Counted from the stretch's first letter, positions 8,372 to 58,030 are shown. The stretch: 64,000 nt of DNA from Minisyncoccota bacterium (GCA_041917695.1 JAYRXE010000037.1:66155-130154); one strand, 5' to 3'. The notes: generated by a model not told the origin, from the letters alone. Made by a program: numbers and translations.

Positions 8372-8372
8372 T

Positions 8373-9542: not shown

Positions 9543-9548
9543 AGCGAT

Positions 9549-12459: not shown

Positions 12460-12674
12460 GGAGTCGCCCGCGTTATCCGAACTTACACAACACATAGATA
12501 AATTCTGCGAATTTTACGAAAAGTCTAAATCGAATAATCTACCACATTCTTAGTGCTCTTTATTGGTTTAGGCTGCGGTATCTCAAACCATTCTGAAGGA
12601 GTTTTATATACAGCCTGTAATTATAAAGAAATAAATTAACTTGATTTTCAGATCGCTCGTGATCTAATCAGATC

Positions 12675-31951: not shown

Positions 31952-32722
31952 TTAACCAACCCCTAAGAGTTCTGAGACCCGTGCGAGCCGGTATCCCTTC
32001 CTCCTCAGGCGTTCGATGATGTTCGGCAACGCCCGACCCGTCGCCGGAGCGTGATCTCCGCCGTCCGCGTGAAGGACGATTACGTCTCCCGGTTTTACGG
32101 CTTTCACGACCGAAAAGGCGAGATGCAGAGGCTCTTTAATACGCGTATCAAGATCCGCAAGGCGCCCCCCTACGAGCGCATAGCCATATTTTCGAATCGC
32201 TTCCCCCTGGTCGGGGTTTTCCTCGTGCCGAGGAAAACGGAACAGTTTGCGGTAGGCGGGGTATTTTGAAAGGATTCTTTCAGCCTCCTTGAGCGTCTCA
32301 ACGCCTGCTTTGGGTTCGGATTCGAGGGTCCGTGAAAGGGGGGAAAACCCCGCATGCGTATAGCCGTGGTTGCCGATTTCAAAAAATGCATGATCGGAAA
32401 TTGTTTGGGTGATTGCCGGATGCGCCTCCGCCCATCGCCCGGTGAGGAAAAATGTCGCAGGCACTTCGAGCCGTATGAGCGTCTCGAGAATCGAAGGGTC
32501 AAACCACTGTTTCACCTGCCCCATGCGGAGCATCTGCTCCATTTTAGGCGTAAGGTCGAGATTGAAGGTGAGCGCAACGACCTTCTCGCGCGTTGCGATG
32601 CGGTCTATCAAAAAAGGCACTCGAGGCCTTTTTTCAACGCGCGTCGTGAAAATGTAGGAAAGAAGCGTAAGCAGTATTTCCCGCAGGTTCCCTTTTTTCG
32701 CCATATCTTTATTATAGAACAT
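31952..32722 (-). CDS. polysaccharide deacetylase (NodB homology domain)
   Basis: FNLDLT..., TFFLTGRWAEAHP and GNHGYTHAGF blocks match the NodB motifs (TFDDG-like, H-S-x-x-H-P, and a His-rich motif). Confidence 0.7.
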   Translation of the reverse strand: MFYNKDMAKKGNLREILLTLLSYIFTTRVEKRPRVPFLIDRIATREKVVALTFNLDLTPKMEQMLRMGQVKQWFDPSILETLIRLEVPATFFLTGRWAEAHPAITQTISDHAFFEIGNHGYTHAGFSPLSRTLESEPKAGVETLKEAERILSKYPAYRKLFRFPRHEENPDQGEAIRKYGYALVGGRLADLDTRIKEPLHLAFSVVKAVKPGDVIVLHADGGDHAPATGRALPNIIERLRRKGYRLARVSELLGVG

Positions 32723-32773
32723 AGGAGCTTCTCCTTACTAGTATATAGCTCTCTTATATGCTACTCTACTGCC

Positions 32774-33385
32774 GTGATAGAAAAACGCATTCTTGTAGAT
32801 CGGTATATCCAAAAAAAGAAATCACTCCAGGAGATTTCCCATGAATTAGGGTGCTCATTGCATACCATTGCATATTGGATGCAAAAATATCGCATTCCCC
32901 GGCGTACTCACAGTGAAGCGACCTACGTAAAACGAAATCCTGAAGGAGATCCCTTCGTGATAACGAAGCCGCAAACTTTAGAAGAGGGCATTCTTTTTGG
33001 GATGGGCTTGGGTTTGTATTGGGGCGAAGGAACCAAGGCTGATAAAGGGTCAATACGATTAGGAAATTCAGACCCAGATTTAATTAAGGTTTTTATCGAT
33101 TTTCTCGGACAGGCATATGGCGTAAAAAAGGAGAAACTCAGTTTCGGATTGCAAATCTTTAGTGATATATCTCCAATAGTAGCTCAGGCGTTCTGGGTAA
33201 AAAAGTTGGGAGTCAGCAAGGATCAGTTTTATAAAACGCTCATTACGCCATCCCGTGGCGAGGGATCGTATAGAAAGAAATTAAAATACGGAGTATTGAC
33301 AGTTTATTTTTGCAATAAGAAACTAAGGACTGCTCTTATTAAGGAGCTTGAAGCATTTGGATTAAAAACTTCAACGCCAATGTAG
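32774..33385 (+). CDS. free-standing LAGLIDADG homing endonuclease with N-terminal HTH
   Basis: LFGMGLGLYWGEGTK is a LAGLIDADG-type motif; the N-terminal SLQEISHELGCSLHTIAYWMQKY is an HTH. GTG start. The TAG stop (33383-33385) lies inside the acceptor stem/position 8-9 of the downstream tRNA. AT-rich. Confidence 0.6.
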   Translation: MIEKRILVDRYIQKKKSLQEISHELGCSLHTIAYWMQKYRIPRRTHSEATYVKRNPEGDPFVITKPQTLEEGILFGMGLGLYWGEGTKADKGSIRLGNSDPDLIKVFIDFLGQAYGVKKEKLSFGLQIFSDISPIVAQAFWVKKLGVSKDQFYKTLITPSRGEGSYRKKLKYGVLTVYFCNKKLRTALIKELEAFGLKTSTPM

Positions 33386-33639
33386 CTCAGTTGGTAGAGC
33401 AACTCCATGGTAAAATTGCCCGCTATTTCGGAAACGTTTTAGTGAGGCCCGAATAACGGTTAAAGGCCTGCATGCGTGGTTCAGACCGTAGCGCGTAATG
33501 CGCTCGAACGACTGACAAGGGGAGCTAAGTCCTTATGGATATGCTTAAGATACAGTCTAATCCTCTCGAATACAGCATCGCGTAAAAGGAGAGGTGTACA
33601 TGAAGGAGTAGGTCGCCGGTTCAAATCCGGCCATTGGCT
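33376..33639 (+). tRNA. tRNA-Thr, anticodon GGT, interrupted by a group I intron after anticodon position 36
   Basis: 5' exon 33376-33411 is GCCAATG-TA-GCTC-AGTTGGTA-GAGC-A-ACTCC-AT-GGT. 3' exon 33603-33639 is AA-GGAGT-AGGTC-GCCGG-TTCAAAT-CCGGC-CATTGGC-T. The acceptor and anticodon stems pair perfectly only when 33412-33602 is removed. The exon ends in U and the intron ends in G. Confidence 0.6.
33412..33602 (+). ncRNA. group I self-splicing intron (about 191 nt, tRNA-Leu/Azoarcus-like small subgroup)
   Basis: Core-like elements: AATTGCCCGC...GGAAAC (P-like), GTTCAGACCGTAGC (Q/R-like, compare GUUCAGUACC), GCTAAGTCCTTATGGATATGC and AAGATACAGTCTAA (compare CCAAGUCCUAAGUC...UAUGGAUGC and the P7 GACUA element of cyanobacterial tRNA-Leu introns). 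Terminal G. Confidence 0.55.
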
Positions 33640-33671
33640 CAAAATTCTTTAATAAACAAACAGGAGGTCCC

Positions 33672-33911
33672 ATGAGCGGAGAGAATCCAGAAAAATCGTA
33701 TAAATTTTTCGATGTGCTTAAACTTGATTCGCGGGGAAGCATAGTCATCCCTAAAAAAATGAGAGATGAACTTGGCCTTGCGGAAGATGATGTATTGGTA
33801 CTTTTCTATCAAGAATTAGACACGAAAGACAATCTCAAAAGGATTGTGTTGGTAAAATTTATCGATATCGCCGACAAGGAAAAGCTCGAAGCTTTTCAAA
33901 AGAATCTATAA
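33672..33911 (+). CDS. AbrB/SpoVT/MazE-like small DNA-binding protein
   Basis: LDSRGSIVIPKKMRDELGL is the looped-hinge swapped-hairpin motif. AGGAGG ribosome-binding site. AT-rich. Confidence 0.5.
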   Translation: MSGENPEKSYKFFDVLKLDSRGSIVIPKKMRDELGLAEDDVLVLFYQELDTKDNLKRIVLVKFIDIADKEKLEAFQKNL

Positions 33912-33977
33912 AATAAGGAGGGTCCAAGCCCTCTTTATTTTTTGCCACAAAGATGGGGGTTTGGTATAAGAAGGTTA

Positions 33978-34724
33978 ATGAAAGCAGAAAAGATCTACAT
34001 ATACGGAAAGCACGCCCTTTCCGAAGCGGCACGCCATGCGCCTCAGGCGCTTAAAAAAGCTTTTCTTTCCGATTCCCATCGCGGGGGAGCGCTTGAGAAG
34101 GCCCTCATGGATCAGAGCGTCCCGGTTTCGCCGCTCACGGCAAAAGACGAGAAGAGCGTTTCGCGGGACGCGGGACACCAGGGCGCAATCGGCGTAATCG
34201 ATCCGAGCGCGCTCATCACCCCTTTTGAGATTTTCATTGCATCGAGGAAAACCGGCAGCGAAGCCGGCATCGTTTTCCTGGATGGCCTCACCGACCCGCA
34301 TAATTTCGGCGCCATCGTCCGCACCGCAGCGGCATTCGGCGCGGCGGCCGTGATCTTTCCAGAATCGAAGCAGGTATCGCTGACGGGAGCTGCCGTGAAA
34401 GCGTCGGCGGGGATGGCTTTCCGCATCCCCCTGGTTTCCGTGAAAAGTTCCGTTTCCGCCCTCAAGGAACTCAAGAAAAAAGGCTTTTCCTCTTATGCGC
34501 TTCTCATGAACGGCAAGAAGAAGCTGGGAACCGAAGAGTTCCCTCCGTCAACCGTATTCGTCTTCGGAAACGAAGGGAGCGGCGTCTCGAAAGGCGCGCT
34601 CAGCGTTGCAGACGAAACGCTTTCCATTCCCATGCATGGACGTGCCGAATCATTGAACGTCGCCGCTTCGGCAGCCAGCGTTCTTTACGAGTGGTCGAGG
34701 CAATACCCGAAAGCGTTATCATAA
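33978..34724 (+). CDS. TrmH/SpoU-family RNA 2'-O-methyltransferase (RlmB-like)
   Basis: GLTDPHNFGAIVRTAAAFG and LNVAASAASVLYEW are SpoU motifs. Confidence 0.75.
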   Translation: MKAEKIYIYGKHALSEAARHAPQALKKAFLSDSHRGGALEKALMDQSVPVSPLTAKDEKSVSRDAGHQGAIGVIDPSALITPFEIFIASRKTGSEAGIVFLDGLTDPHNFGAIVRTAAAFGAAAVIFPESKQVSLTGAAVKASAGMAFRIPLVSVKSSVSALKELKKKGFSSYALLMNGKKKLGTEEFPPSTVFVFGNEGSGVSKGALSVADETLSIPMHGRAESLNVAASAASVLYEWSRQYPKALS

Positions 34725-39139: not shown

Positions 39140-40384
39140 ATGCGTCGGGAAAGAACATCTCTCTTGCTCGCTATTGTCTTCATTGCCTTTTTCATAAGCG
39201 CGTGGTTCGTTTACGATCCGCTTTGGACCCGAGCGACGAACTTTCGGACGTGGAATTTGGGCCTTGATCTTGCCGGCGGGAGCTACCTTACCTACGAAAT
39301 CGACCTTTCTTCGGTTTCCGGGGCGGAACGGGATTCGGTTGTCAAAGGATTGCGCGACGTTGTTGAGCGCCGCGTGAACCTTTTCGGGGTTTCGGAGCCC
39401 AAAGTGTACGAGGAGCACGCCGGCGATTCGACGCGGCTCGTCGTCGAACTTGCGGGCATCCGCGACGTGAACCAGGCGATTGCGAACATCGGCGCGACTC
39501 CTTTTCTCGATTTTCGCGAAGTCATTGTCGAAGGAACCTCCACGACCCGCTTCATCCCGACCGCGCTGAACGGCCGGTATGTGAAAGGCGCCCAGCTCGC
39601 GTTTGATTCGACGACGGGGAAGCCCCAGGTATCAATCCAGTTCAACGATGAAGGCGGAAAACTTTTTGAAGAAATAACCGCGCGAAACGTCGGCCGTCCG
39701 CTCGCCATTTTCCTTGATAATGAACTGGTCGAAATGCCGACGGTGCAGGAGACCATCACGGGAGGCAATGCCCAGATTTCAGGAAACTACACGTATGACG
39801 AGGCGCGGACCATGGTTGAGCGTTTTAACGCCGGCGCCCTTCCCGCCCCCATCAAGCTCGTGAACCAGCAGACGATTGATGCCGATTTCGGCAAGGATGC
39901 GCTCAATAAGGCAATATTCGCCGGACTTATCGGGACCTTGGCGGTCATGCTTTTCATGCTTCTCTTCTACCGTTCCCTGGGTATTTTTGCCGCAGTGGCG
40001 CTCCTTATTTACATTCCGCTCACGCTTGCCGTATTTAAAATCGTTCCGGTTACGATGACCTTGGCAGGCATCGCCGGATTTATCCTTTCGATCGGCATGG
40101 CGGTCGACGCGAACATCCTCGTTTTCGAGCGCATGAAGGAAGAGCTTCGCAGGGGATTGAGCCGTACGAAAGCGGTGGAAGAAGGTTTCCGCCGGGCGTG
40201 GACCTCGATTCGCGATTCCAACATATCAACCATCATCACCTCGTTGGTACTCTACTCGTTCACCTCGAGCTTCGTCCGCGGATTCGCCCTTACGCTTTTG
40301 ATCGGCGTCTTGGTCAGCATGTTTTCGGCGATCACGGTCACTCGCACCCTGCTTCGGACATTCGTAAAGGACAAAACCGCATAA
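39140..40384 (+). CDS. secD: protein translocase subunit SecD
   Basis: LGLDLAGGSYLTYEI and six C-terminal TM helices. Confidence 0.85.
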   Translation: MRRERTSLLLAIVFIAFFISAWFVYDPLWTRATNFRTWNLGLDLAGGSYLTYEIDLSSVSGAERDSVVKGLRDVVERRVNLFGVSEPKVYEEHAGDSTRLVVELAGIRDVNQAIANIGATPFLDFREVIVEGTSTTRFIPTALNGRYVKGAQLAFDSTTGKPQVSIQFNDEGGKLFEEITARNVGRPLAIFLDNELVEMPTVQETITGGNAQISGNYTYDEARTMVERFNAGALPAPIKLVNQQTIDADFGKDALNKAIFAGLIGTLAVMLFMLLFYRSLGIFAAVALLIYIPLTLAVFKIVPVTMTLAGIAGFILSIGMAVDANILVFERMKEELRRGLSRTKAVEEGFRRAWTSIRDSNISTIITSLVLYSFTSSFVRGFALTLLIGVLVSMFSAITVTRTLLRTFVKDKTA

Positions 40385-40388
40385 ATTT

Positions 40389-41276
40389 ATGGATATCATT
40401 CAAAAACGATTCATTTTTCTCATCTCGTCCGGCGTTTTGACGCTTCTTGCGGTTGCCGCGCTCGTTGTTTTCGGATTGAAGGCCGGCATTGATTTGAAAG
40501 GGGGCACGCAATGGCAGTTTTCAATCGGCCGGGAAGCGACCGAAGCGGATGTCGCCCATGTGATGACCCAGGTGAAGAACGAAGAGGTCATCGTGAAACG
40601 CGCCGATGACGGCAGTTACATCGCCCGGCTGCGGAGCATTTCGCCGGAAGAAAAGCAGGAATACACCGGAGCGCTCACCGTCGCGTACGGAGCGGTCGTC
40701 GACAAGAACTTCTCGAATATCGGCCCGTCAATCGGCGCGGAGCTCCGCCAAAAATCCATCACGGCGATTATTCTCGTGCTCTTCGGCATTTCGCTCTATA
40801 TCGCGTTCGCGTTCCGCAAAGTTTCGAAGCCGGTCAGTTCATGGAAATACGGGATGGTGACCCTGGTGACGCTTTTCCACGATGTCATCATGCCGGCGGG
40901 CCTCTTGGCGGTTCTCGGCCGTTTCAAAGGCATCGAGATCGACACTAATTTCATCGTAGCGCTCCTCGTCGTGATGGGCTTTTCCGTCCATGACACCATC
41001 GTCGTCTTCGACCGTATTCGGGAAAATCTCACCCTGGCCCGCGGTAAGGCTGTTTCCTTGGGGGATATCATCAATAAGAGCATCCGGGAGACGTTTGCCC
41101 GCTCGATAAATACCTCCCTTACCCTCATGATCGTTTTGGTGGCTCTGCTCGTCTTCGGCCCTCCCAGTCTCTTCTACTTCATCCTTACCATCCTCGTTGG
41201 CACCCTTTTTGGCACCTATTCCTCCATTTTCGTGGCAAGCCCGCTTCTCTACGGCTTCCACCGAGACGGGAAATAG
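40389..41276 (+). CDS. secF: protein translocase subunit SecF
   Basis: GIDLKGGTQWQF and the SecF TM core (GFSVHDTIVVFDRIREN). Confidence 0.85.
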   Translation: MDIIQKRFIFLISSGVLTLLAVAALVVFGLKAGIDLKGGTQWQFSIGREATEADVAHVMTQVKNEEVIVKRADDGSYIARLRSISPEEKQEYTGALTVAYGAVVDKNFSNIGPSIGAELRQKSITAIILVLFGISLYIAFAFRKVSKPVSSWKYGMVTLVTLFHDVIMPAGLLAVLGRFKGIEIDTNFIVALLVVMGFSVHDTIVVFDRIRENLTLARGKAVSLGDIINKSIRETFARSINTSLTLMIVLVALLVFGPPSLFYFILTILVGTLFGTYSSIFVASPLLYGFHRDGK

Positions 41277-41389: not shown

Positions 41390-42406
41390 ATGACCAAGAA
41401 TCTCGACGAATTTATCGCAAAACTGCTTAAAGACTTCAGTCCGAAGCAACAGAAGGTGCTTGCGGGCCGTTTTGGTTTGAAAAACGGCAAGCGGCTGACG
41501 CTTCAGGAAATCGGCGAGGACCTCGGGGTAACCCGCGAGCGCGTGCGCCAAATCGAAGAGCAGTCTTTGAAGAAAATCCGCGAGACCGTCGAAACGGAGG
41601 CGAAGGAGCTCCTCGATACCGCAAAGAAGTTTTTGTCGGAGCAGGGAGGCGTCCGAAAGGACGATGTCTTCATGGAAGAGGTGGCTTCGGCGAGCGGTGT
41701 CGCCGCCAAAGCCCAAAAGGAAGCGAAGCTCCGCTTTGTCTTTGCCGCGGCGCGCTTTCCGCATTTCCACAAGGAGGATGATTCATTCAATGCTTTTTGG
41801 TACCTCGATAAGGGGGCTGAAAAGAAGTTTTTGGATTTCGTGAAATCAGCCACTAAATATTTTGATTCGGTTGACCGCAACGAGGCGTTGCGCGAGAAGA
41901 AACACCTTGAAGATTACTCGGATCCCGTTTCCTGGCATTACCTTTCCATCCCGAAACATTTCGGCGTGAACGTATTCGGCGATTTCGGCCCCAAGCATTG
42001 GGCGGAGATCGAGCCGAAGACCATCCGCGACAAGGCGTATTTGGCATTGAAGAAGAGCGAGAAACCGCTTCACTTTGAAGATATCGCCAAAGCGATCCAT
42101 TCCTTGAAGATCGACAAGAAGCCGGCCCACGTGCAGACGGTGCATAACGAACTCATCAAGGACGAGCGGTTTGTGCTCGTCGGCCGGGGCGTTTACGCCC
42201 TCCGCGAGGAAGGGTACGAGCCGGGGACGGTTCGGGAAGTAATCGCGAAACTTTTGAAAGCGAAAGGGCCGATGCATGCTTCGGATGTCATCCGGTTTGT
42301 GAACGAGCGCCGGTTCCTCAAGGAAAATACCATTCTTTTGAACCTCCAAAACCGGAAATATTTCAAACGCTTGGACGACGGACGCTACCACTCGAAAGAA
42401 GCGTAG
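41390..42406 (+). CDS. protein with N-terminal sigma-70 region-4-type HTH, rest unknown
   Basis: LTLQEIGEDLGVTRERVRQIEEQSLKKIR is a textbook sigma region 4.2 HTH. About 270 aa of unrecognised sequence follow. Confidence 0.45.
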   Translation: MTKNLDEFIAKLLKDFSPKQQKVLAGRFGLKNGKRLTLQEIGEDLGVTRERVRQIEEQSLKKIRETVETEAKELLDTAKKFLSEQGGVRKDDVFMEEVASASGVAAKAQKEAKLRFVFAAARFPHFHKEDDSFNAFWYLDKGAEKKFLDFVKSATKYFDSVDRNEALREKKHLEDYSDPVSWHYLSIPKHFGVNVFGDFGPKHWAEIEPKTIRDKAYLALKKSEKPLHFEDIAKAIHSLKIDKKPAHVQTVHNELIKDERFVLVGRGVYALREEGYEPGTVREVIAKLLKAKGPMHASDVIRFVNERRFLKENTILLNLQNRKYFKRLDDGRYHSKEA

Positions 42407-42472
42407 CCGTGAAAAAAGAAGAAGCCGCCGGAAAGGGCGGCTTCTTCGTTCTTGTGTTATCATAGTTTTGAA

Positions 42473-43873
42473 ATGGGGAAATTCCTCACTGAAGTCGTCG
42501 GCCTTATCCCGGAGCTTTTCAAGAAAGAAGAGGCCTGGCTTTTGGTGTTCATCCTCGCCCTTGGCGGGCTTTTTTCCTTCTCCTTTTTCCAGACATCGCT
42601 CGGCATATGGGATGTCCCGGCTATTCTGTGGCGTTTTATAGCGGCAACGTGGTGGTTTTGGATCTTCTTCCCGCTCTTGTCGCTTTTTGAATCGCTCGTA
42701 CTCTTTTGGCGGCAGGAGGAATACAAGGAGGAGCTTGAGTTCGTGATGTTTGAGGTTAAAATCCCGCGCGAAATCGAGCGGGGGCCGAAATCCATGGAGC
42801 AAATCCTCATGACGCTCGGCTCGCTCCGCAACGTGCCGACCATCGCCAAGGCGAAGTATTATGAAGGCGAGATCACCGCGCCTTTCAGCCTTGAGATAAC
42901 GAGTTTCGGCGGACAGGTGCATTTTTACGTGCGCCTTCTTAAAAAATACGGCGCCATCCTTGAATCGGCGTTCTTTTCCTACTATCCCGATGTGGAACTG
43001 AAAGAAGTGGAGGACTACGCGCTCCGGTTTCCGCAATCACCGGAAGAAATGTACCGGTCGGGTATGAAGGTTTTCGGCACGGAGCTTGTCCTCGCCCGCG
43101 ACCCGCTTTATCCCATCCGGACGTACCCGCATTTCGAGGTCGGGGGAGAGGGGAAGCAGTTCGACCCGTTGTCTTCGATGATCGAAGTGCTGGGAAAGTT
43201 AAAACCGCACGAAACCGCCGCCATTCAGATCGTCGCTTCGCCGGCCGATCCGAAATGGGGAGCCGACTGGCAGGATGATTTGGAAAAGCTCCGTGAGGAG
43301 CTCTCGGGAGGATCTTCAAGCGACGGCACGACAACGACCTTTTCGCCGAAGCCCCAAAAGTTCGAAGTGCTGAAGGCGGTCGAAGAAAACGTTACCAAAC
43401 CCGCCTTCGATACCATCATCCGCTACATGTACCTTGCCCCCGTCGGGAATTTTTCGGACAGTTTCGTGAGCCAGGGAATTATGACGTCGTTCAACCAGTA
43501 TGCCGCGATAAACTTGAACGCCTTCCGCCCCAATTTCCCGACGCAAACGCGCACCGCCATCTGGTTCCCGCCGTACGTTTTCCCCGACCGCCGAGTGGAG
43601 ATTCGCCGACAGCGGATGCTCGTAAATTTCCTGAAGCGGGAAGTCCCGCCGGAGGATTGGGTCGGACAGGCGGTGACGTCCCATCTCTATCATTGGAACT
43701 TCGCATCCCGTACGTTTCTTTTGAACGTCGAGGGCCTTGCCACCATTTACCATCTTCCGCCGCGTGTCGTCCTTACCGCGCCCCACATGCAACGCATGGA
43801 AAGCCGGAAGGCCGGGCCGTCTGCGGGACTCCAGATATTCGGGGACGAATCGGAGATTGAACAATTCTTTTAA
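42473..43873 (+). CDS. membrane protein (2-3 N-terminal TM helices plus about 370-aa soluble domain), unknown function
   Basis: ORF plus hydrophobic N-terminus. Immediately upstream of a small TM protein and two ATPases. Confidence 0.4.
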   Translation: MGKFLTEVVGLIPELFKKEEAWLLVFILALGGLFSFSFFQTSLGIWDVPAILWRFIAATWWFWIFFPLLSLFESLVLFWRQEEYKEELEFVMFEVKIPREIERGPKSMEQILMTLGSLRNVPTIAKAKYYEGEITAPFSLEITSFGGQVHFYVRLLKKYGAILESAFFSYYPDVELKEVEDYALRFPQSPEEMYRSGMKVFGTELVLARDPLYPIRTYPHFEVGGEGKQFDPLSSMIEVLGKLKPHETAAIQIVASPADPKWGADWQDDLEKLREELSGGSSSDGTTTTFSPKPQKFEVLKAVEENVTKPAFDTIIRYMYLAPVGNFSDSFVSQGIMTSFNQYAAINLNAFRPNFPTQTRTAIWFPPYVFPDRRVEIRRQRMLVNFLKREVPPEDWVGQAVTSHLYHWNFASRTFLLNVEGLATIYHLPPRVVLTAPHMQRMESRKAGPSAGLQIFGDESEIEQFF

Positions 43874-43879
43874 ACGGCT

Positions 43880-44428
43880 ATGTTCGACTTCATTACTTCA
43901 ACCGATTTTCTCGCCCTTCAGACGTGGGTCACTATTTTCCGCATCGCCAAAGCGCTTTTCATTCTTTTCGACATCGCCCTTGTTTTTGCGATCCTCTACG
44001 CCTTTAAGCGCGCGATGGCTTTTTATCCGCCGTTCGTCCCCTGGAAGCGCATTGCGTCATTGAAGGCGGGCGCGTCTCCAGAGGGCGCCGAACCCGTTTC
44101 GACGTTCCTTTCCGATGAGTGGGGAGCACTCCAAACCGACGCCGCCGCGGTGGCGCTCGACGAAGGATGGACTATGATCCTTATCCGCGCCGATAAACTG
44201 GCGGACGAGGCGCTGAAGCGCTTGGGGTATGAAGGCAATACCATGCTCGAGCGGATACAGTCGCTTGCGCGGACCAACCCGAACCTGAAGACGCTTGAAA
44301 AATTCTGGCGGGCGCACCGCTTGCGCAATAAGCTCGTTCACGAAACGGGATTCACAACCACTAAAAACGAGGCGCGAACGGCGCTCAAAGGGTACGGGGA
44401 ATTCTTCAAAGAACTCGGGGTTCTGTAA
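43880..44428 (+). CDS. small membrane protein (182 aa)
   Basis: N-terminal TM hairpin; 6-nt gaps to its neighbours. Confidence 0.4.
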   Translation: MFDFITSTDFLALQTWVTIFRIAKALFILFDIALVFAILYAFKRAMAFYPPFVPWKRIASLKAGASPEGAEPVSTFLSDEWGALQTDAAAVALDEGWTMILIRADKLADEALKRLGYEGNTMLERIQSLARTNPNLKTLEKFWRAHRLRNKLVHETGFTTTKNEARTALKGYGEFFKELGVL

Positions 44429-44433
44429 TCCAG

Positions 44434-45777
44434 ATGCCCGGCAAGGAAAAAGACAACCGCATACAGCTCATCAAATACGCTCCGCCTCCGGCGGATCTTC
44501 CGGTGTACGGGAAAAGCGACCCGCGGGAAACGTCATTTATCGGTCGCACCAATTATGTCGCGGCGCTGGAGACGAAGAATTTCATCTTCGGCGTGAAGCG
44601 CGTCGATCGCCGGCGGCATATCTACGCCATCGGGAAATCCGGCGTCGGCAAATCGAAACTGTTCGAGCTTTTGATGCGGCAGGATATCGCCTACGGGCAT
44701 GGGCTCTGTTTCATCGATCCCTACGGGGAAACCATCGATGACATCCTCCCCTTTATTCCGGAAAACCGCATTGAGGACGTCTGCCTTATCGACCCGACCG
44801 ATACGGCATCGCCCGTTTCCTTCAATCCCTTTGTGGGGGTAGAGGACGATGCGAAGCATCAGCTCGTGCAGGAACTTGCGGAGATTATGGAACAGCGCTT
44901 CGGAGCGAATTGGACGCCCCGTTTGGAACATGTGTTCCGTTTTGCCTGTAGCGCCCTCCTCGACTACCCCCGGGCTTCATTTATGGACCTTATACCGCTT
45001 CTTTCCGACGCGGGGCATCGGAAGGAAATAGCCTCACACGCCAAAGATCCGATAGTGCGCCGTTTTTGGCTTGAAGAGTTCGAAGGATGGGCGGAAAAAT
45101 TCGACGGGGAATCGATATTGCCCCTTATGAACAAATTCGGGCAGTTCTTTTCAAACCCGATGTTGCGCGGCATCCTCGGGCAGTTGGAAAATAAAATCGA
45201 TTTTGACGATCTTATCGCGGGAAAGCGCATCGTCCTTATCAATCTCGCGAAGGGGCGGATGGGAGAGGACAATGCGAATTTTCTCGGCGCACTTTTCCTC
45301 GCGAAACTCAAGGAAGCGGGCATGGCGCGGGTTTCCCAGAGTCGCGACGCGCGGCACGATTTTTACGTGTATCTCGACGAGTTCCAGGGGCTCGTTACCG
45401 ACACGTTTGAAAGCTTCCTTCCCGAAGCGCGGAAATACGGCTTGTGCCTCATGCTCGCGCACCAATACGTTTCCCAGCTTTCCCCGAAGGTGCATGCCGG
45501 CATTCTCGGCAGTGCGGGGACCATCGTGATCTTCCGCGTCGGCGGGGAGGACGCTTTGAAGCTGAAGCCTGAAATGGCGCCGGTCTTCGACGTGAAAGAT
45601 ATGATAAACCTCGGCACGGGACAGATGTATTTGAAGATGATGATTGACGGCGAGACGTACGATCCGTTTTCCGCCGAAACGCTCAAGGTGTTGCCGCCGA
45701 CGCATCCGTCGCACGCAGACCGCATTATCGCGTCTTCACGCGCAAAATACGCGCTCCACTCTGCCGCAAACGCGTAG
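44434..45777 (+). CDS. HerA/FtsK-superfamily (DUF87/VirB4-like) ATPase, copy 1
   Basis: FGVKRVDRRRHIYAIGKSGVGKS (Walker A), CFIDPYGE (DPHGE-like), Walker B YVYLDEFQ, MLAHQYVSQL. Confidence 0.6.
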   Translation: MPGKEKDNRIQLIKYAPPPADLPVYGKSDPRETSFIGRTNYVAALETKNFIFGVKRVDRRRHIYAIGKSGVGKSKLFELLMRQDIAYGHGLCFIDPYGETIDDILPFIPENRIEDVCLIDPTDTASPVSFNPFVGVEDDAKHQLVQELAEIMEQRFGANWTPRLEHVFRFACSALLDYPRASFMDLIPLLSDAGHRKEIASHAKDPIVRRFWLEEFEGWAEKFDGESILPLMNKFGQFFSNPMLRGILGQLENKIDFDDLIAGKRIVLINLAKGRMGEDNANFLGALFLAKLKEAGMARVSQSRDARHDFYVYLDEFQGLVTDTFESFLPEARKYGLCLMLAHQYVSQLSPKVHAGILGSAGTIVIFRVGGEDALKLKPEMAPVFDVKDMINLGTGQMYLKMMIDGETYDPFSAETLKVLPPTHPSHADRIIASSRAKYALHSAANA

Positions 45778-45821
45778 GTTTTTGCGGTGTTTCCCAAAGC
45801 AACTATAATAAAGACCATCCT

Positions 45822-47627
45822 ATGAGCCAGAACGCAGAACGGGACATCGTTTACTTCGGAAAGACCGATTTTCGCAATACGAATCGTCTTTTCGGCATTA
45901 AGCGCTCGGACCGCCGACAGCACATGTATGTCGTGGGGAAGACGGGAACGGGCAAGACCACCCTGCTCCACAATATGATGGTCCAGGATATCGTGAACGG
46001 CGAAGGCGTATGCGTCATCGACCCGCACGGCGAATTCGTCGAAACCCTCCTGAGGAAAATCCCGGAGGAGCGCATGGATGACGTCATTTATTTCAATCCC
46101 GCCGATAGCGACTATTTCATCGGCTTTAACGTGCTCGAGCTTCCCGACCCGAAATACAAGAACCTCGTCGCGTCGGGGCTTATGGGCATCTTTACGAAGA
46201 TATGGGCCGGAACCTGGTCCGCCCGCATGGAATATATCTTGAACAATTGCGTGCTCGCGCTCTTGGACACCCCCGGTTCAACGCTTTTGGGCATCACGCG
46301 CCTCTTGGTGGACAAGGAATACCGGCAGAAAATCGTCGCCAACGTGAAAGACCCCATCGTAAAGGCGTTTTGGGTCCATGAATACGAAGAATGGCGCGAC
46401 CAGTTCAGGAACGAGGCTATCGCCCCTATCCAAAACAAGGTGGGCCAATTCCTTTCGACCGCGCTCGTTCGGAACATCGTCGGCCAGTCGAAGAGCACTA
46501 TCAACATCTACGACATCATGAATTCGGGGAAGATATTCCTCGTGAACCTGTCGAAGGGACGCATCGGCGAAGACAATTCAGCGCTTTTGGGCGCCATGCT
46601 TATAACGAAGATGCAGCTTTCCGCCATGGAACGCGTGCGCATTCCGGAGGAGGAGCGCGTCGACTTTTTCCTCTATGTCGACGAGTTCCAGAACTTTGCC
46701 ACCGATTCCTTTGCGAACATCCTTTCCGAAGCCCGCAAATACCGCCTGGACCTCATCCTTGCCCACCAGTATATCGGCCAGCTCGTCACCGACGTGTCGA
46801 CCAAAGTGCGCGACGCGGTGTTCGGCAACGTCGGCACGATGGTTTCCTTCCGTGTCGGCGCGGCAGATGCGGAATTCCTCGAGAAGGAATTCGGTCCCGA
46901 ATTTTCCGTGCAAGACATGGTGAATATCCCGAACCGATGCGTCTACTTGAAGCTTATGGCGGACGGGGTGTCTTCGCGCCCTTTTTCGGGCGCCACCCTT
47001 CCGCCGTTCAACGGCCCGAAGGAAGCCCTTCTTCCCGAGCGCATCCTTGAGGCGTCGCGGAAGAAATATGCGCGGCCCCGGTGGCAAATCGAAGCCGAGA
47101 TCAATAAATGGAGCGGCCTCCAGACTTTGTCGGCTCCCGGCGAGGAACAGCATAGCGTCACGTGTTCGATTTGCGGAAATGAGGCGCGTGTTCCCTTCGA
47201 GCCCGAGGAAGGCCGTCCGGTCTATTGCCAGGATTGCATGCGCAAGATAAAGGCAGGGGAGCTCCAGCCGGTGCGAAGCCAGGGATTTGCATCCCGTCCC
47301 CGCGAGCGCGTTGAAAACCCGCTGGCGGACATGGGAATCGAATTTTCCCGGGAGGCATCCCGCGAAGCCCCGCCGGTCGCGCCGGTTTCACCCCGCCCGC
47401 GGCAGGAAGCGGTTTCCGATGTGCGTCGGGCGCCCGCGCGCCCGGAACGAAAGGAAGTTCCGCCCGAACGGCCGGCACCTCCCGCTCCCGGAGGCATATC
47501 GCTCGAGAGTCTTTCAAGCTATCGCTCGACTCCAAAGCGGGGCGGCGAGAAGCCGAAACCCGCTGAAGAAGTTGATGTGCTAAAAAGCGCCCTTGAGGAC
47601 GCTTTGAAGAGTCTCGGCAAGGAATAA
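45822..47627 (+). CDS. HerA/FtsK-superfamily ATPase, copy 2, with C-terminal Cys4 zinc ribbon and Pro/Arg-rich tail
   Basis: FGIKRSDRRQHMYVVGKTGTGKT, CVIDPHGEF, LYVDEFQ, ILAHQYIGQL. C-terminal CSICGNEARVPFEPEEGRPVYCQDC, then a PRP-rich low-complexity region. Confidence 0.6.
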   Translation: MSQNAERDIVYFGKTDFRNTNRLFGIKRSDRRQHMYVVGKTGTGKTTLLHNMMVQDIVNGEGVCVIDPHGEFVETLLRKIPEERMDDVIYFNPADSDYFIGFNVLELPDPKYKNLVASGLMGIFTKIWAGTWSARMEYILNNCVLALLDTPGSTLLGITRLLVDKEYRQKIVANVKDPIVKAFWVHEYEEWRDQFRNEAIAPIQNKVGQFLSTALVRNIVGQSKSTINIYDIMNSGKIFLVNLSKGRIGEDNSALLGAMLITKMQLSAMERVRIPEEERVDFFLYVDEFQNFATDSFANILSEARKYRLDLILAHQYIGQLVTDVSTKVRDAVFGNVGTMVSFRVGAADAEFLEKEFGPEFSVQDMVNIPNRCVYLKLMADGVSSRPFSGATLPPFNGPKEALLPERILEASRKKYARPRWQIEAEINKWSGLQTLSAPGEEQHSVTCSICGNEARVPFEPEEGRPVYCQDCMRKIKAGELQPVRSQGFASRPRERVENPLADMGIEFSREASREAPPVAPVSPRPRQEAVSDVRRAPARPERKEVPPERPAPPAPGGISLESLSSYRSTPKRGGEKPKPAEEVDVLKSALEDALKSLGKE

Positions 47628-49338: not shown

Positions 49339-50760
49339 ATGCCTCCCCATGCCGCGGTGTTTTACGGGACGGTCTTTTTCCTGTGCGGCATTCTTCTCAA
49401 GAGTTTTTTCTCCGGCAGCGTGATATTCATCGTCGGAGGGGCCTTTTCCCTTGTCCTTCTCATTTTTTGGCGGCTCCGAACGGTTCCGTTCCTTGCCGTT
49501 TTTATGCCGTTCTTTCTGATTCTCGGCGCGTTTTACTATTCGTTTTACGATTCGCTGACCCGTCCGCAGGCAGTTCCTTACGGGGAAGCGCGGGAATTCA
49601 CCGCGGAGGTGGTTTCGATGCGGGAACGCGCCACCTACCGCATAGCGACATTAAAGATTCTCAATGAAAAAAATATCACTGTTTCCGCCCTCCTTCCTTC
49701 GCTTCCGCCTGCGGGCTATGGCGACACGCTTCGGCTCAAAGGGGAGATCCTTCCGCCGGAAGACCGCGCTTCAGCGCGCTATTTGCTGAAGGACAATATA
49801 TTCGGCACGATGGCTTTCCCTGAAATTTACGAGGTTTCGCGGACAAGGGAATGGCGCCCGCTGCGCTTTCTCTATGCCGCATCCGATTATGTAATTGCGT
49901 CTTTTAAGCGCGTCATGCCCGCGGACGATGCCGCCCTTATGGCCGGCCTTACCATCGGAAGCACTGATGATTTTTCCGCCGGTTTCAAGGAGGCGATGCG
50001 CCGGAGCGGCACCACGCACCTGGTTGCTCTTTCGGGGTATAACGTAACGATTATCGCCTCAGTTCTTCTGGTTTTTCTCCGATTTTTCCTCTCGCGCCGT
50101 CAGGCGCTTTTTGCAGCTCTTTTCGCCGTGCTTGTTTTCGTGCTTATGACGGGAGCGTCTCCGTCGGTCGTCCGTGCGGGACTTGCGGCCGCGCTCCTCA
50201 TTTCATTGAAGATATCGGGGCGGCTGCGTGACCCGAAGTACGTCGTCGCATTCGTTGCGCTTTTGATGGCGCTGTGGAACCCCCGCGTGGTCGCCTTCGA
50301 TGTGGGGTTCCAGCTTTCATTCGCGGCCTTGCTGGGCATCTTATACATCCTTCCCGTTCTGCGCGCCGGATTGTGGGGAAGGGACCGGAACGCGCCTTTC
50401 CTTTTCGAGTCGTTTGGAGCGGCGCTCGCCGCCCAGCTGGCTGCCGTTCCGCTTCTCCTCTTTTATTTTGGGAACGTCTATGCGAGTTCGCTTATCGCGA
50501 ATGCCGCCATCGCCATATTCATTCCTCCCACGATGGCGATTGGTTTCTTGATAGCCTTTTTCTCGCTTCTCCTGCCCCCGCTTGCCCTTCTCGGCGGATT
50601 CGTGGCCGTTCCGTTCCTCCGCGCAGAAAGCGGGATTATCGACTTTTTTTCGGAGCATGCGTTCTTGCCCGTATCTTTTTCGGTTTCAGCGGTGTACATC
50701 GGATTGTACTATGGAATCATGGCAGTGCTTTATCGATATGCACGAAAACGGTTTTTTTGA
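49339..50760 (+). CDS. comEC: ComEC/Rec2 competence-domain part (frame 1)
   Basis: Competence-domain blocks GTTHLVALSGYNVTIIA and SPSVVRAGLAAALLIS, about 10 TM helices. Ends at a TGA that directly follows a T7 run. Confidence 0.7.
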   Translation: MPPHAAVFYGTVFFLCGILLKSFFSGSVIFIVGGAFSLVLLIFWRLRTVPFLAVFMPFFLILGAFYYSFYDSLTRPQAVPYGEAREFTAEVVSMRERATYRIATLKILNEKNITVSALLPSLPPAGYGDTLRLKGEILPPEDRASARYLLKDNIFGTMAFPEIYEVSRTREWRPLRFLYAASDYVIASFKRVMPADDAALMAGLTIGSTDDFSAGFKEAMRRSGTTHLVALSGYNVTIIASVLLVFLRFFLSRRQALFAALFAVLVFVLMTGASPSVVRAGLAAALLISLKISGRLRDPKYVVAFVALLMALWNPRVVAFDVGFQLSFAALLGILYILPVLRAGLWGRDRNAPFLFESFGAALAAQLAAVPLLLFYFGNVYASSLIANAAIAIFIPPTMAIGFLIAFFSLLLPPLALLGGFVAVPFLRAESGIIDFFSEHAFLPVSFSVSAVYIGLYYGIMAVLYRYARKRFF

Positions 50761-51619
50761 GGCTCTCGCCCGTGTTGCGGAAGAAGGCGCGGCGCTTTTT
50801 TGGACCGTCGTACTTTCGCTTGCGGTTTTTTGCGTGTACGGTTTTTCATCGCTCGCCGCCGATGCATCGGGAGAATATTTCCTCAGCGTTGGGCAGGGGG
50901 ATGCGCAGGCGGTTGTATTTCCCGCAGGTTCCGTTGCATTGATTGACGGAGGTCCGCCGAACGGGCGCGCGGTTTCCGAAATCCAGCGCGTCCTTCCCTT
51001 TTGGAAGCGTTCCATCGAGGTTATCTTTGCGAGCCATCCCGACACGGACCATATCGGCGGACTTACCGAAATTATCCGCCGGTACCGGGTGGGTATCGTT
51101 TTCACGAATGGCGGCGCGAGCGAGAGCGGAGAATTTCAAGAATTCAAGCAGGCGATAGCCGACCGGAACGTCGTCGAAATGCCTCTTCGGAAAGGAGACG
51201 TGATTCGGATAGGCGGCATGTCTTTCCGCGTGTTGTGGCCGAGCGGGGAAGCCGCAAACGGGAACGATGAAGGGAACGACAAAAGTTTGGTGCTCCTTTT
51301 GGAGAGCGGTGCGCGAACGACGCTCTACACCGGAGACGCATCGGAAAAAATCGAACGTACTGTCGCTTCCGGCATCGGTCCCGTAGATATTTTGAAAGTT
51401 GGGCATCACGGTTCGAAATATTCGACCGGAGAAGCATTGCTCCTTTCGACCCGCCCCCGCGCTGCCATTATCGGAGTTGGGAAAAACCGGTACGGCCACC
51501 CCGCGCCCGAGGTGCTTTCCCGGCTTCAGGCTTTCGGAATTCCCGCGTTTCGGACCGACCGTGACGGCTCCATGCGGGTGCCTTTTGGGGCAGATATGCG
51601 CATCCTTGCCGCGGATTAG
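50738..51619 (+). CDS. comEC: ComEC metallo-beta-lactamase domain part (frame 2)
   Basis: H-x-H-x-DH-type motif ASHPDTDHIGGL and KVGHHGSKYST. Overlaps the previous ORF; removing one T at 50752-50758 fuses both into a single ComEC of about 760 aa. Confidence 0.65.
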   Translation: MHENGFFEALARVAEEGAALFWTVVLSLAVFCVYGFSSLAADASGEYFLSVGQGDAQAVVFPAGSVALIDGGPPNGRAVSEIQRVLPFWKRSIEVIFASHPDTDHIGGLTEIIRRYRVGIVFTNGGASESGEFQEFKQAIADRNVVEMPLRKGDVIRIGGMSFRVLWPSGEAANGNDEGNDKSLVLLLESGARTTLYTGDASEKIERTVASGIGPVDILKVGHHGSKYSTGEALLLSTRPRAAIIGVGKNRYGHPAPEVLSRLQAFGIPAFRTDRDGSMRVPFGADMRILAAD

Positions 51620-54541: not shown

Positions 54542-57055
54542 ATGCTCAATTTTTTCGCTAAACTCGGTTCAAACAGGAAAATCGAGGAATATCGCGCCCT
54601 CGCGGACCTCGTGGAGACCTTCGACGAGCAGTTTCGGGGGCTTTCCGACGCCGATCTCAAGGCGCAAACCGAAGAATTCAAGCGCCGCCTTTCGGCGGGG
54701 GAGACGATAGACCAAGTGATGCCGGAGGCGTTTGCCGCCGTCCGCGAAGCCTCCCACCGGACGCTTCGTATGCGCCATTTTCCCGTCCAGCTTATGGGCG
54801 GCGCGGCGCTTCAGCAGGGAAACGTCGCCGAAATGTCGACCGGCGAAGGAAAGACGCTTGTGGCGACCCTCCCGGCATACGTGAACGCGCTTTCCGGGGA
54901 AGGCGTGCATGTGATCACTGTAAACGACTATCTCGCCCGCCGTGACGCGATATGGATGGGGCAGGTGTATCATGTCCTCGGCCTCACCGTTTCCTGCATC
55001 GTGCATGAAGGCGCGTATGCGTACGATCCCAGCTTCCGCGGGGAGGAAAAAGCCGATGAAACGCGCGACGAAGTCGGCTCATTCAAAGTCATCCAGGAAT
55101 TTTTGCGCCCCATCGAACGAAAGGACGCCTATCGGGCGGACATTACCTACGGCACCAACCATGAATTCGGCTTCGACTATTTGCGCGACAACTTGGCGAT
55201 TCGGCTTGCCGACAAGGTACAGCGCGGCCATAGCTTTGCGATCATCGACGAGGTTGATTCGATCCTTATCGACGAAGCCCGCACGCCGCTTATCATTTCC
55301 GCGCCGGACATCCAATCGAGCGAGTACTACAAGACCTTCGCGCGCATCGTGGAGCGCCTTACCGCGGAAGAAGACTATGCGGTGGATGAAAAATTGAAGT
55401 CGGTTTCGATTCTCGATTCGGGCATCGAAAAGGTGCAGAAACTCATCGGCGTCGAGAATCTGTTCGACCCCGAGCATTCGCGCCTGGTCCACTATCTCCA
55501 GGAATCGCTCCGCGCGAAGGCGCTTTTCCGCCGCGACAAGGACTACGTGGTAAAAGGCGGGCAGATCTTCATCGTCGACGAATTCACGGGGCGTATCCTT
55601 GAGGGTCGGCGGTATTCCGGAGGCCTCCACCAGGCGATTGAAGCGAAGGAGGGCGTGTTCGTAAAGGAAGAGAGCCGGACGTACGCCCAGATAACCATCC
55701 AGAATTATTTCAGGCTGTATAAAAAGATTTCTGGCATGACGGGTACCGCTTCGACTTCCGCGGAAGAATTCCACAAGGTCTATAACCTTGAGGTGGTGAA
55801 AATCCCGACAAACCGCGACATGATCCGCAAAGACCTTCCCGACCGGGTCTATAAGAATCAGCATGCGAAATATATGGCGGTTGTCCGCGAAGTCGAGGAA
55901 CGGCATACGGCGGGCCAGCCTATCCTTATCGGTACGGCTTCGATCGCGCACAACGAGGCTCTTTCGGCGTATCTCCACAAAGCAGGCATTCGCCACGAGC
56001 TTTTGAATGCGAAAAACAACGAACGGGAGGGCGAGATCATCGCCCAGGCCGGCAAGCCCGGCGCCGTTACCGTCGCCACCAACATGGCCGGCCGCGGCGT
56101 CGACATCATCCTCGGCGGAAATCCGCCGAGCGAGGAAGACGCGAAGAAGATACGCGACTGCGGCGGACTTCACGTAATCGGCACCGAGCGGCATGAGGCG
56201 CGCCGCATCGACAACCAGCTCCGCGGCCGCGCGGGGCGCCAGGGAGACCCCGGCTCCACGCAGTTTTACCTGTCTCTCGAAGACGACCTGGTGCGCATTT
56301 TCGGCGGAGATCGCATCGGCCGGCTCATGGAGACGTTAAATTTCCCCGAAGAGACGCCTATCGAATCGAAGATGGTGACGAAGGCCGTCGACCAGGCTCA
56401 GCAGAAGGTGGAAGGCATGAACTTCGATATCCGCAAGCATTTGCTCGATTTCGACGATGTCTTGAACAAGCAGCGTTCGGCCGTGTATGCCCGCCGCGAC
56501 GCCTTCCTTGATGCCGCCGAGAAGAACGATGTCATCGATATTGTCCGCGAAACGCTGAACCGGCACATCGAACGCATGCGCACGGAAGCGGAAGCGCTTC
56601 AAGCTCCGGAATCGGACGAAGAAACCGCGAAGCGGTACGCCGCAATCGCGGAAGCCGAAATGCGCACGGCCGACCTTCCGGAAAAGCTTGAACCCGAGCG
56701 CACGCGGATGATCGCCGAACACTTGATCCGCATTTCGGACACGCTGTGGGTTGAGCATCTTGAGAATCTCGAGGCCTTGCGCGATTTCGTGAATCTTCGC
56801 GCCTACGGCCAGCATGATCCCGTCGTCGAATACCGCCGCGAGGGCCATTTGCTTTACAGCCAAATGAATGCCAATTTCGACTCGTTCGTTTTTCAGAGCA
56901 TTTTTCCACTCTTCGATTTTGATCTTTCAGAATCCCGCGTGAAGCTCCGTGAAGAAAAAAAGATTGCGCCCCCGGCAGGACATGAAAATATCGGCCGAAA
57001 TGATCCCTGCTGGTGCGGGTCGGGGAGGAAATACAAGAAGTGCCATGGGAAGTAA
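54542..57055 (+). CDS. secA: preprotein translocase ATPase SecA
   Basis: Walker A MSTGEGKT, DEAD-like IIDEVDSILIDEAR, C-terminal zinc finger CWCGSGRKYKKCHG. Confidence 0.95.
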   Translation: MLNFFAKLGSNRKIEEYRALADLVETFDEQFRGLSDADLKAQTEEFKRRLSAGETIDQVMPEAFAAVREASHRTLRMRHFPVQLMGGAALQQGNVAEMSTGEGKTLVATLPAYVNALSGEGVHVITVNDYLARRDAIWMGQVYHVLGLTVSCIVHEGAYAYDPSFRGEEKADETRDEVGSFKVIQEFLRPIERKDAYRADITYGTNHEFGFDYLRDNLAIRLADKVQRGHSFAIIDEVDSILIDEARTPLIISAPDIQSSEYYKTFARIVERLTAEEDYAVDEKLKSVSILDSGIEKVQKLIGVENLFDPEHSRLVHYLQESLRAKALFRRDKDYVVKGGQIFIVDEFTGRILEGRRYSGGLHQAIEAKEGVFVKEESRTYAQITIQNYFRLYKKISGMTGTASTSAEEFHKVYNLEVVKIPTNRDMIRKDLPDRVYKNQHAKYMAVVREVEERHTAGQPILIGTASIAHNEALSAYLHKAGIRHELLNAKNNEREGEIIAQAGKPGAVTVATNMAGRGVDIILGGNPPSEEDAKKIRDCGGLHVIGTERHEARRIDNQLRGRAGRQGDPGSTQFYLSLEDDLVRIFGGDRIGRLMETLNFPEETPIESKMVTKAVDQAQQKVEGMNFDIRKHLLDFDDVLNKQRSAVYARRDAFLDAAEKNDVIDIVRETLNRHIERMRTEAEALQAPESDEETAKRYAAIAEAEMRTADLPEKLEPERTRMIAEHLIRISDTLWVEHLENLEALRDFVNLRAYGQHDPVVEYRREGHLLYSQMNANFDSFVFQSIFPLFDFDLSESRVKLREEKKIAPPAGHENIGRNDPCWCGSGRKYKKCHGK

Positions 57056-57563: not shown

Positions 57564-57610
57564 TTTCACAAAGGCGTCATGAAAAATAGGAAGTACCACG
57601 GAAAATAAGC

Positions 57611-58012: not shown

Positions 58013-58030
58013 CGATATTAATAACTCAGT

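Follow-up and report, generated by a model that had tools for sequence, protein, structure and literature searches.

DUF8128 membrane proteins and coupling-protein-like ATPases in a conserved gene cluster of Patescibacteria

Membrane proteins of the family DUF8128 and apparently active ATPases of the type IV coupling protein (T4CP) family form a vertically inherited pair, coupled genetically and in occasional cases fused. Here, we report this partnership from a five-gene cluster (g1 to g5, positions 41390-47627) in a 64,000-nucleotide (nt) stretch of DNA from a Minisyncoccota bacterium (GCA_041917695.1, JAYRXE010000037.1:66155-130154), and from relatives of that cluster in other genomes and metagenomes; "the window" below means the whole stretch at its full length. 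On our reading, which we hold as slightly better than an even bet, a split T4CP/VirB4-like membrane motor has been passed down vertically, and this locus encodes its Paceibacteria-type version.

With tiny genomes and a dependence on host cells, Patescibacteria account for a large share of bacterial diversity. About two coupling-protein-like ATPases are retained by nearly every one of these bacteria, usually encoded far from the genes of type IV secretion systems (T4SSs) (PMC12102498), and one of the T4CP-like ATPases is essential in the single species tested (PMC10633639). Such orphan T4CP homologues in Patescibacteria are already published (PMC12102498). The partnership and fusion with DUF8128, the modeled VirB4-like fold of this family, the membrane HEPN protein that belongs to the gene set in some clades, and the evolutionary layering of the locus appear undescribed; a literature search found no publication on DUF8128 or PF26449. 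If DUF8128 is a dedicated membrane partner, the role of the orphan ATPases becomes testable via a small, defined gene set, and a split, secretion-system-independent form would be added to the VirB4/VirD4 motor family.

Coupling of DUF8128 to ATPases in two clades

An original prediction, made from the sequence of the window alone, had described five co-directional genes encoding a helix-turn-helix (HTH) protein, two membrane proteins, and two ATPases. All five were confirmed as open reading frames (ORFs) on the plus strand: g1 (41390-42406; 338 amino acids [aa]), the DUF8128 (PF26449) gene g2 (42452-43873; 473 aa from a TTG start, 466 aa from the first ATG at 42473), g3 (43880-44428; 182 aa), and the ATPase genes g4 (44434-45777; 447 aa) and g5 (45822-47627; 601 aa). 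The spacers are 45 nt between g1 and g2 (66 nt if g2 starts from the ATG), 6 nt between g2 and g3, 5 nt between g3 and g4, and 44 nt between g4 and g5.

Gene order was compared in the window's clade, from 80 genomes that each represent a species (Paceibacteria-type bins: Jorgensen-, Brenner-, Lipton-, and Wolfebacteria) and in 80 metagenome loci of a distant DUF8128 clade, whose query protein is ~31% identical to g2. The scan for distant DUF8128 used a 6-sequence alignment, a 19-sequence version being too divergent, and counts are given as loci with an arrangement over loci with enough sequence to see it. Within the window's clade, the order SecD-SecF-HTH-DUF8128-HEPN-ATPase is almost fixed: g3 directly follows g2 in 80/80 loci, an ATPase directly follows g3 in 68/75 (g4-type in 64 of the 68), g1 stands directly upstream of g2 in 72/76, and SecF lies upstream of DUF8128 in 59/68. 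A g5-type ATPase adjoins g4 in just 5/58 loci and occurs anywhere in the fetched flank in 16/58; the predicted five-gene unit is therefore upheld in this clade for g1 to g4, and synteny fails for the fifth gene only.

Loci of the distant clade have an ATPase directly downstream of DUF8128 in 63/72 cases (median gap, 11 nt), a g1-type gene directly upstream in 37/63, and SecF upstream in 31/44; g3 was found anywhere in the locus once (1/80). The full-length ATPases of this clade, encoded almost always right behind DUF8128, are g5-type without exception (54/54; median identity, 54% to g5 and 41% to g4), which makes DUF8128 plus a g5-type ATPase the predicted ancestral pair, and 38/54 carry the zinc ribbon described for g5 below. 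From the same comparison, g3 and g4 would seem to have been inserted between DUF8128 and the g5-type ATPase in the window's clade only.

The DUF8128-ATPase pair is also found in other surroundings (loci L088 and L094), and in one case the two are a single protein. On metagenome contig Ga0209717_1000224 (L160:1-2136), the C-terminal two-thirds of DUF8128 is joined directly to an ATPase (...FHFPLPSCETPNIHWLGARKAAAPVNIPTEGVVLGKNIFRG...IIGMTGAGKS), in a frame that stays open to the locus edge. The same genome also has a standard SecDF-HTH-DUF8128-ATPase operon, with the fused second copy ~6 kb upstream. This fusion argues for DUF8128 and the ATPase as one working unit.

Judged by composition and position, the cluster is vertically inherited and housekeeping-like, since its GC content (0.52 to 0.57) equals that of the flanking genome, its place after SecDF is fixed in the 80 species-level genomes, and no relatives of DUF8128 were found in PLSDB plasmids (tblastn of g2) or IMG/VR viral contigs (scan). 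Three low-GC islands lie elsewhere in the window. Among the selected window ORFs scanned, no VirB4 or relaxase was recognized, and the other large ORFs with a Walker A motif encode only a Pif1 helicase and a defense HerA. An integrative conjugative element was considered and rejected: no relaxase was recognized, there is no GC shift, and the position is fixed. The concern raised with the original prediction, that the ATPases might be a conjugative TraG/VirD4 carried by such an element or by a plasmid, did not materialize; their similarity to T4CPs is remote, and neither relaxase nor VirB4 turned up among the ORFs scanned.

The paralogous ATPases g4 and g5

The products of g4 and g5 are paralogs, as first supposed, and share 41% identity over 418 aa (E value, 4e-115). 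The motifs quoted earlier for them, Walker A GK[ST]GxGK[ST], DP[HY]G[ED], Y[VIL]DEF[QH], and AHQYxxQL, are present and kept in 67 g4-type and 17 g5-type orthologs, in which the Lys of Walker A and the Asp of Walker B never vary and the Glu of Walker B, the AHQY..Q residues, and an FR motif are nearly invariant. With their catalytic motifs conserved in this way, both paralogs look active.

Both proteins match Pfam TrwB_AAD_bind (g4, 3.4e-8 and 33.2 bits; g5, 2.2e-15 and 56.9 bits; cut-off, 20.5), and T4SS-DNA_transf and TraG-D_C also score above the Pfam cut-off. The best NCBIfam matches are to VirD4-like and TraD models, at 37.8 to 54.9 bits, and fall far short of the equivalog cut-offs (250 to 647 bits). 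Sequence matches in the PDB are to TrwB and DotL only. Profile alignment (hhalign) to R388 TrwB gave probabilities of 88% for g4 and 95.9% for g5 (g5 aa 28-321 against TrwB aa 119-391); with g5 and with a combined g4+g5 profile, the alignment covers Walker A, the inserted region, and Walker B of TrwB. The VirB4 proteins TrwK and TrsE align with g4 and g5 around local motifs only. The Walker A motif begins at residue 67 of g4 and residue 39 of g5, and Walker B follows ~240 aa later; the g5-TrwB alignment, a sequence alignment only, takes in the region of the TrwB all-alpha domain. No 19-residue window in either protein reaches the threshold for a hydrophobic segment, and there is no room for a HAS-barrel, so the earlier description of ATPases with neither an N-terminal transmembrane segment nor a HAS-barrel-length N terminus stands.

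From the Pfam, NCBIfam, and PDB matches, the hhalign results, and the absent hydrophobic segment, we class g4 (paralog A, soluble and without a zinc ribbon) and g5 (paralog B, soluble, with its core at aa 1-430) as transmembrane-less members of the VirD4/TrwB coupling-protein branch, not of HerA or VirB4. The VirB4/HerA/Ced-like logic originally proposed gives way to this VirD4/TrwB-type placement. Membership in HerA or Ced was rejected, as those models score far under the T4CP models; g4 and g5 do have weak Pfam matches to DUF87 and FtsK_SpoIIIE and share a superfamily with HerA and FtsK.

Beyond its core, g5 has, at aa 448-472 (nt 47163-47237), a zinc ribbon with the pattern CxxC-x17-CxxC (Pfam zf_Tbcl_2, 1.9e-15; TIGR04272, 1.1e-15), followed by a charged, Pro-rich tail (aa 473-601). 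Both had been predicted; the ribbon was confirmed as described, and the tail proved to be 129 aa rather than ~110 aa and charged as well as Pro rich (15% Pro, 19% K/R, and 16% D/E). In some relatives, the g4-type ATPase is followed by a 563-aa protein without a family match (L001:10529-12220), which has a weak C-terminal match to zf_Tbcl_2, below the Pfam cut-off. The zinc ribbon is possibly a module that moves about in these genomes.

Like the T4CPs VirD4, TrwB, TraD, and TraG, g4 and g5 have the homologous P-loop domain, with a predicted counterpart of the region inserted between Walker A and Walker B. Unlike them, they lack the N-terminal transmembrane domain, are chromosomal and vertically inherited, do not stand beside a relaxase, VirB4, or other T4SS genes, and are paired with DUF8128, g5 having in addition its ribbon and low-complexity tail; the similarity is also remote (NCBIfam, 30 to 55 bits versus cut-offs of 250 to 650). 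A similar published arrangement is that of S. epibionticum ML1, where a gene for a sigma region 4 plus HARE-HTH protein (SEML1_0294, essential by transposon sequencing [Tn-seq]; PMC10633639, Table S1) is likewise directly 5' of a same-strand gene for a TrwB_AAD_bind ATPase (SEML1_0293; PMC10633639, Tables S1 and S2). This genome, too, has two T4CP-like ATPases, the second (SEML1_0142) encoded elsewhere (Wang et al. 2023, PMC10633639, Tables S1 and S2). It differs in the size of the two ATPases (921 and 1,019 aa, respectively) and in that no HEPN gene is reported beside them. SEML1_0293 has ~370 unassigned N-terminal residues, and such N-terminal residues of the S. epibionticum ATPases may be a fused DUF8128.

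These comparisons bear on a different account, in which the ATPases are the missing coupling proteins of a chromosomal T4SS encoded elsewhere and DUF8128 is a membrane adaptor. It would make sense of T4CP-family ATPases together with a VirB4-like fold in DUF8128, and of a Patescibacteria T4SS cluster that has no recognizable coupling protein (PMC10633639); T4CP genes are often far from virB4 (PMC12102498), and SEML1_0142 is essential, as is the S. epibionticum T4SS (PMC10633639). We nonetheless think it unlikely. The 5,713 VirD4-type homologues, about two per genome, occur in 2,918 of 3,035 Patescibacteria genomes, ~500 more than the 2,417 with VirB4, and only 148 of them are near virB4 (Quinonero-Coronel et al. 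2025, PMC12102498); the authors of that survey mention possible exaptation of T4CP homologues. Furthermore, SEML1_0293, the copy beside the HTH gene, is dispensable though the T4SS is essential, and no VirB4-like gene was recognized in the window among the selected ORFs scanned. The presence of two paralogs, g4 and g5, agrees with the number of about two T4CP homologues per genome.

The DNA pumps FtsK and T4CP are related. The ATPases could on these grounds serve chromosome handling or DNA uptake, as an FtsK-like septal translocase or as a motor that pulls DNA through ComEC, a suggestion which the zinc ribbon and basic tail of g5 and the linked HTH protein would suit. ComEC is encoded ~1.7 kb downstream in the window, and Patescibacteria are naturally competent (PMC10633639). 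Such a pump seems to us very unlikely, however: an FtsK is reported in Saccharibacteria strain TM7x; deletion of comEC is viable in S. epibionticum, in which one T4CP-like gene is essential; and DNA binding by the present proteins is a prediction only.

DUF8128, a HEPN-like protein, and a proposed membrane motor

The family assignment of g2 comes from its relatives: PF26449 is precomputed on all but one of 120 listed g2 homologs (42 to 71% identical over most of their length), and the family comprises 1,517 clusters at 50% identity. The g2 protein itself had no match in NCBIfam or in the Pfam copy searched, which seems to be without the PF26449 model. It had been described as a 467-aa protein with two or three transmembrane helices, and it is indeed a membrane protein, of 466 or 473 aa, with two hydrophobic segments (aa 21-44 and 61-80) rather than three, predicted as two N-terminal transmembrane helices. 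A ~350-aa alpha/beta domain follows, and then a disordered C-terminal tail with a conserved SRKxxPPxxL. The charge distribution suggests that both ends face the cytoplasm. No Walker motif is present in g2; a strand-loop-helix at aa 91-117 was considered as a degenerate P-loop and, having no supporting evidence, was set aside.

A structure model of g2 (AlphaFold2 [AF2], from 35 sequences; predicted local distance difference test [pLDDT], 80.9; predicted template modeling score [pTM], 0.75), from which the original prediction hoped to recognize a channel, returned VirB4-like fold matches. The top 13 PDB matches (Foldseek) were all TrwK/VirB4 chains of R388 (best E value, 4e-5; probability, 0.97 to 1.0), with template modeling scores (TM-scores) of just 0.27 to 0.33 and the matched part of VirB4 not reported by Foldseek. 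As modeled, the DUF8128 domain has a VirB4-like fold, these TrwK/VirB4 chains being its sole significant PDB fold matches. The likeness extends to organization, in that g2 plus an ATPase, like VirB3-VirB4 (TrwM-TrwK in R388), makes up a transmembrane hairpin, a ~350-aa non-ATPase domain, and a P-loop domain; in pGO1, the ATPase TrsE and TrsD, which resembles the N-terminal part of VirB4, likewise come from separate, adjacent genes (PMC12102498). Unlike the VirB3-VirB4 case, DUF8128 has no sequence similarity to TrwK, TrsD, or VirB3, the ATPase domain of g4 and g5 is nearer TrwB, and no VirB6, VirB8, or pilin genes lie near the cluster.

The g3 protein, specific to the window's clade, had been described as a 182-aa protein with a transmembrane hairpin. 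Its length and membrane anchor held up; in place of the hairpin, one long hydrophobic segment (aa 16-47), a single helix in the model, leads into a folded bundle of helices (AF2; pLDDT, 88.5). The top 13 PDB matches of this bundle (Foldseek) were all HEPN (2hsb: TM-score, 0.65; root mean square deviation, 3.3 Å), with probabilities of 0.96 to 1.0, yet E values of merely 0.05 to 0.3. Within the motif AHRxRNxLVH, R149-N150-x3-H154 is invariant in a 45-sequence alignment and at least 90% conserved in 50 sequences; W81, A104, D105, and H146 are invariant as well. Read from this alignment, RNxxxH is the canonical HEPN Rx4-6H motif, and with the modeled fold in agreement, g3 is classed as a single-transmembrane HEPN-like protein whose RNase activity is only predicted. 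It had no sequence match in Pfam or NCBIfam at E values up to 0.1 or in PADLOC up to 0.01, and its profile gave only chance-level matches, to Rpb5, among PDB sequences. The C-terminal domain superposes on HEPN proteins such as AF_0298 and the MNT-HEPN toxins, and its R-N-x3-H is of their Rx4-6H type; unlike them, g3 is anchored in the membrane, is without an MNT partner or a Pfam, NCBIfam, or PADLOC family match, and is fixed beside an ATPase in a housekeeping-like locus.

The HEPN fold of g3 and its canonical RNxxxH would suit anti-phage defense or abortive infection, with the ATPases sensing or translocating invading nucleic acid and the membrane HEPN protein acting as an RNase effector. PADLOC gave weak matches of g4 and g5 to mad8 (40 to 56 bits) and to HerA models (at most 27 bits) and of g1 to MzaA, and one distant DUF8128-ATPase pair lies beside an AbiEii toxin gene. 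We consider such a role highly improbable. The cluster is single-copy, fixed, and co-linear in the 80 species genomes at native GC; the HEPN gene is near-absent (1/80) from the distant clade that keeps DUF8128 and the ATPase; plasmid (PLSDB) and viral (IMG/VR) copies were not found; and the scores of 40 to 56 bits compare with 581 bits (PDLC04097, 1e-174) for the window's true HerA (10453-12459). Of the original suggestion of a DNA-transfer or defense machine specific to the Candidate Phyla Radiation, the restriction to Patescibacteria agrees with the evidence, and the defense part is unlikely given the native GC and the contrast with the true HerA island.

A DUF8128 transmembrane protein with T4CP-family ATPases fits the membrane-associated module driven by nucleoside triphosphates that was first envisaged. 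In the split motor that we favor, DUF8128 would be one core part, a transmembrane hairpin plus a cytoplasmic VirB4-like domain without nucleotide-binding motifs, and the other would be a transmembrane-less, T4CP-lineage P-loop ATPase of the g5 type, with zinc ribbon and charged tail. DUF8128 would supply the membrane anchor that the ATPases lack, and the pair would amount to a split version of the succession of membrane hairpin, N-terminal domain, and ATPase seen in VirB3-VirB4. The ATPase ring, assumed to be hexameric by analogy with TrwB, VirB4, and FtsK, would be docked by DUF8128 at the cytoplasmic face of the membrane, where ATP hydrolysis would drive a polymer to or from a membrane conduit; candidate conduits are the motor's own transmembrane helices, a T4SS encoded elsewhere, and ComEC. 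The substrate would be nucleic acid, as favored by the T4CP lineage of the ATPases, the ribbon and basic tail of g5, and the presence of a HEPN partner and of a linked HTH protein; this is the weakest step of the proposal. In the window's clade, g3 and the duplicated ATPase g4 would have been inserted as a second pair between the core genes. There, possible roles of g3 are membrane anchoring of g4 and RNA processing; g1 may supply the machine or regulate it, or its role may be a separate one.

A more far-reaching version would make DUF8128 and the transmembrane-less T4CP-like ATPases a third, Patescibacteria-wide VirB4/VirD4 branch for T4SS-independent translocation of nucleic acid at the membrane, with the HEPN protein and g1 as accessories. 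We regard this as quite unlikely; if true, such a machine could, for example, bring in or process RNA or DNA from the host as a nucleotide source for organisms unable to make nucleotides.

Several observations weigh against the split motor. The link of DUF8128 to VirB4 is a fold comparison only, at the TM-scores given above. DUF8128 profiles (35 and 145 sequences) aligned with TrwK, TrsD, TrsE, and VirB3 at <4% probability and had no match to pGO1 TrsC and TrsK or to R388 TrwB and TrwM (hhalign), and a DUF8128 profile retrieved nothing from PDB sequences at E values up to 10. The operon has no gene for a polytopic channel protein. The HTH-DUF8128 gene pair occurs without an adjoining ATPase at three loci (L086, L090, and L091), and DUF8128 stands alone at a fourth (L096). 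In S. epibionticum, the HTH gene is essential and the adjoining T4CP-like gene is dispensable (PMC10633639), so g1 may not belong to the machine; in the window, a hairpin lies between g1 and g2.

The lineages in which DUF8128 has no ATPase neighbor, the unequal essentiality in S. epibionticum, the hairpin, and the usual separation of g5 from g4 would also be in keeping with no single functional unit at all. The products of g1, g2, g3, and the ATPase genes would then work independently, their order retained by descent in streamlined genomes. To us this is the least probable of the readings, given that DUF8128 adjoins an ATPase in two clades that diverged deeply, as well as in unrelated contexts, with gaps of 5 to 11 nt or overlaps, and that a fusion of the two exists. 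The split motor is the account of the pair that we prefer.

g1 and the surroundings of the cluster

The sigma-70 region 4 of g1 (aa 13-65; Pfam Sigma70_r4, 3.7e-15) is of the RpoD/RpoS type (2.5e-12 to solved RpoS/RpoD chains in the PDB). It had been taken as the only recognizable part of the protein; a HARE-HTH domain was also found (aa 211-273; 1.1e-7, above the Pfam cut-off). From these domains, g1 is probably a soluble protein of the DNA- or RNA-polymerase-binding type, tightly linked to the cluster and, going by its S. epibionticum counterpart, essential. It may be a separate essential transcription-related factor.

The hairpin in the g1-g2 spacer (42418-42447; pattern scan) has 12 perfect pairs, 8 of them G-C, and a loop of 6 nt (GAAGAAGCCGCC-GGAAAG-GGCGGCTTCTTC), followed by GTTCTTGTGT, and is terminator-like when read on either strand. 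As a predicted terminator or attenuator, it could possibly separate g1 from g2 to g5. Among relatives, the spacer ranges from gene overlap up to about 190 nt; with spacer length differing so widely, conservation of the hairpin is improbable.

Upstream of the cluster lie SecD (39140-40384) and SecF (40389-41276), both on the plus strand and identified from precomputed Pfam matches on the orthologous genes of related loci; we do not claim them as members of the machine. On the 3' side, a convergent gene for elongation factor P (EF-P) is followed by MnmA and ComEC, and the locus lies between SecDF and EF-P in many species. SecA (54542-57055; scanned), SecDF (39140-41276), and a split ComEC (49339-51619) are all at most 15 kb from the cluster. 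ComEC, as read from the sequence with no family scan, is split into a membrane part and then a metallo-beta-lactamase-like part. The SecDF linkage, the only one of the SecA, SecDF, and ComEC linkages checked in other genomes, is conserved.

In one distant lineage, the DUF8128-ATPase pair (L094:991-2237 and L095:374-1620) lies directly 3' of genes for an AbiEii toxin and a putative DUF6088 (AbiEi-like) antitoxin, the latter with a match below the Pfam cut-off, and is followed by an 895-aa protein without a family match.

A defense island with a GC content of 0.39 to 0.43 occupies positions 7232-13121 of the window and encodes an EcoRI-like adenine methylase (7232-8371), a type II restriction enzyme with GmrSD_N and HNH domains (8373-9542), the full-length anti-phage HerA (10453-12459), and a DpnI-like methyl-directed nuclease (12675-13121). 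Just upstream of the island, the minus strand encodes a Pif1-type helicase (4784-6130). Two further stretches, 32000-34000 and 57000-59000, are also low in GC (0.43 to 0.46); ORFs sampled from them (32354-33385 and 57611-58012) had no Pfam match, and the stretches may be further acquired islands.

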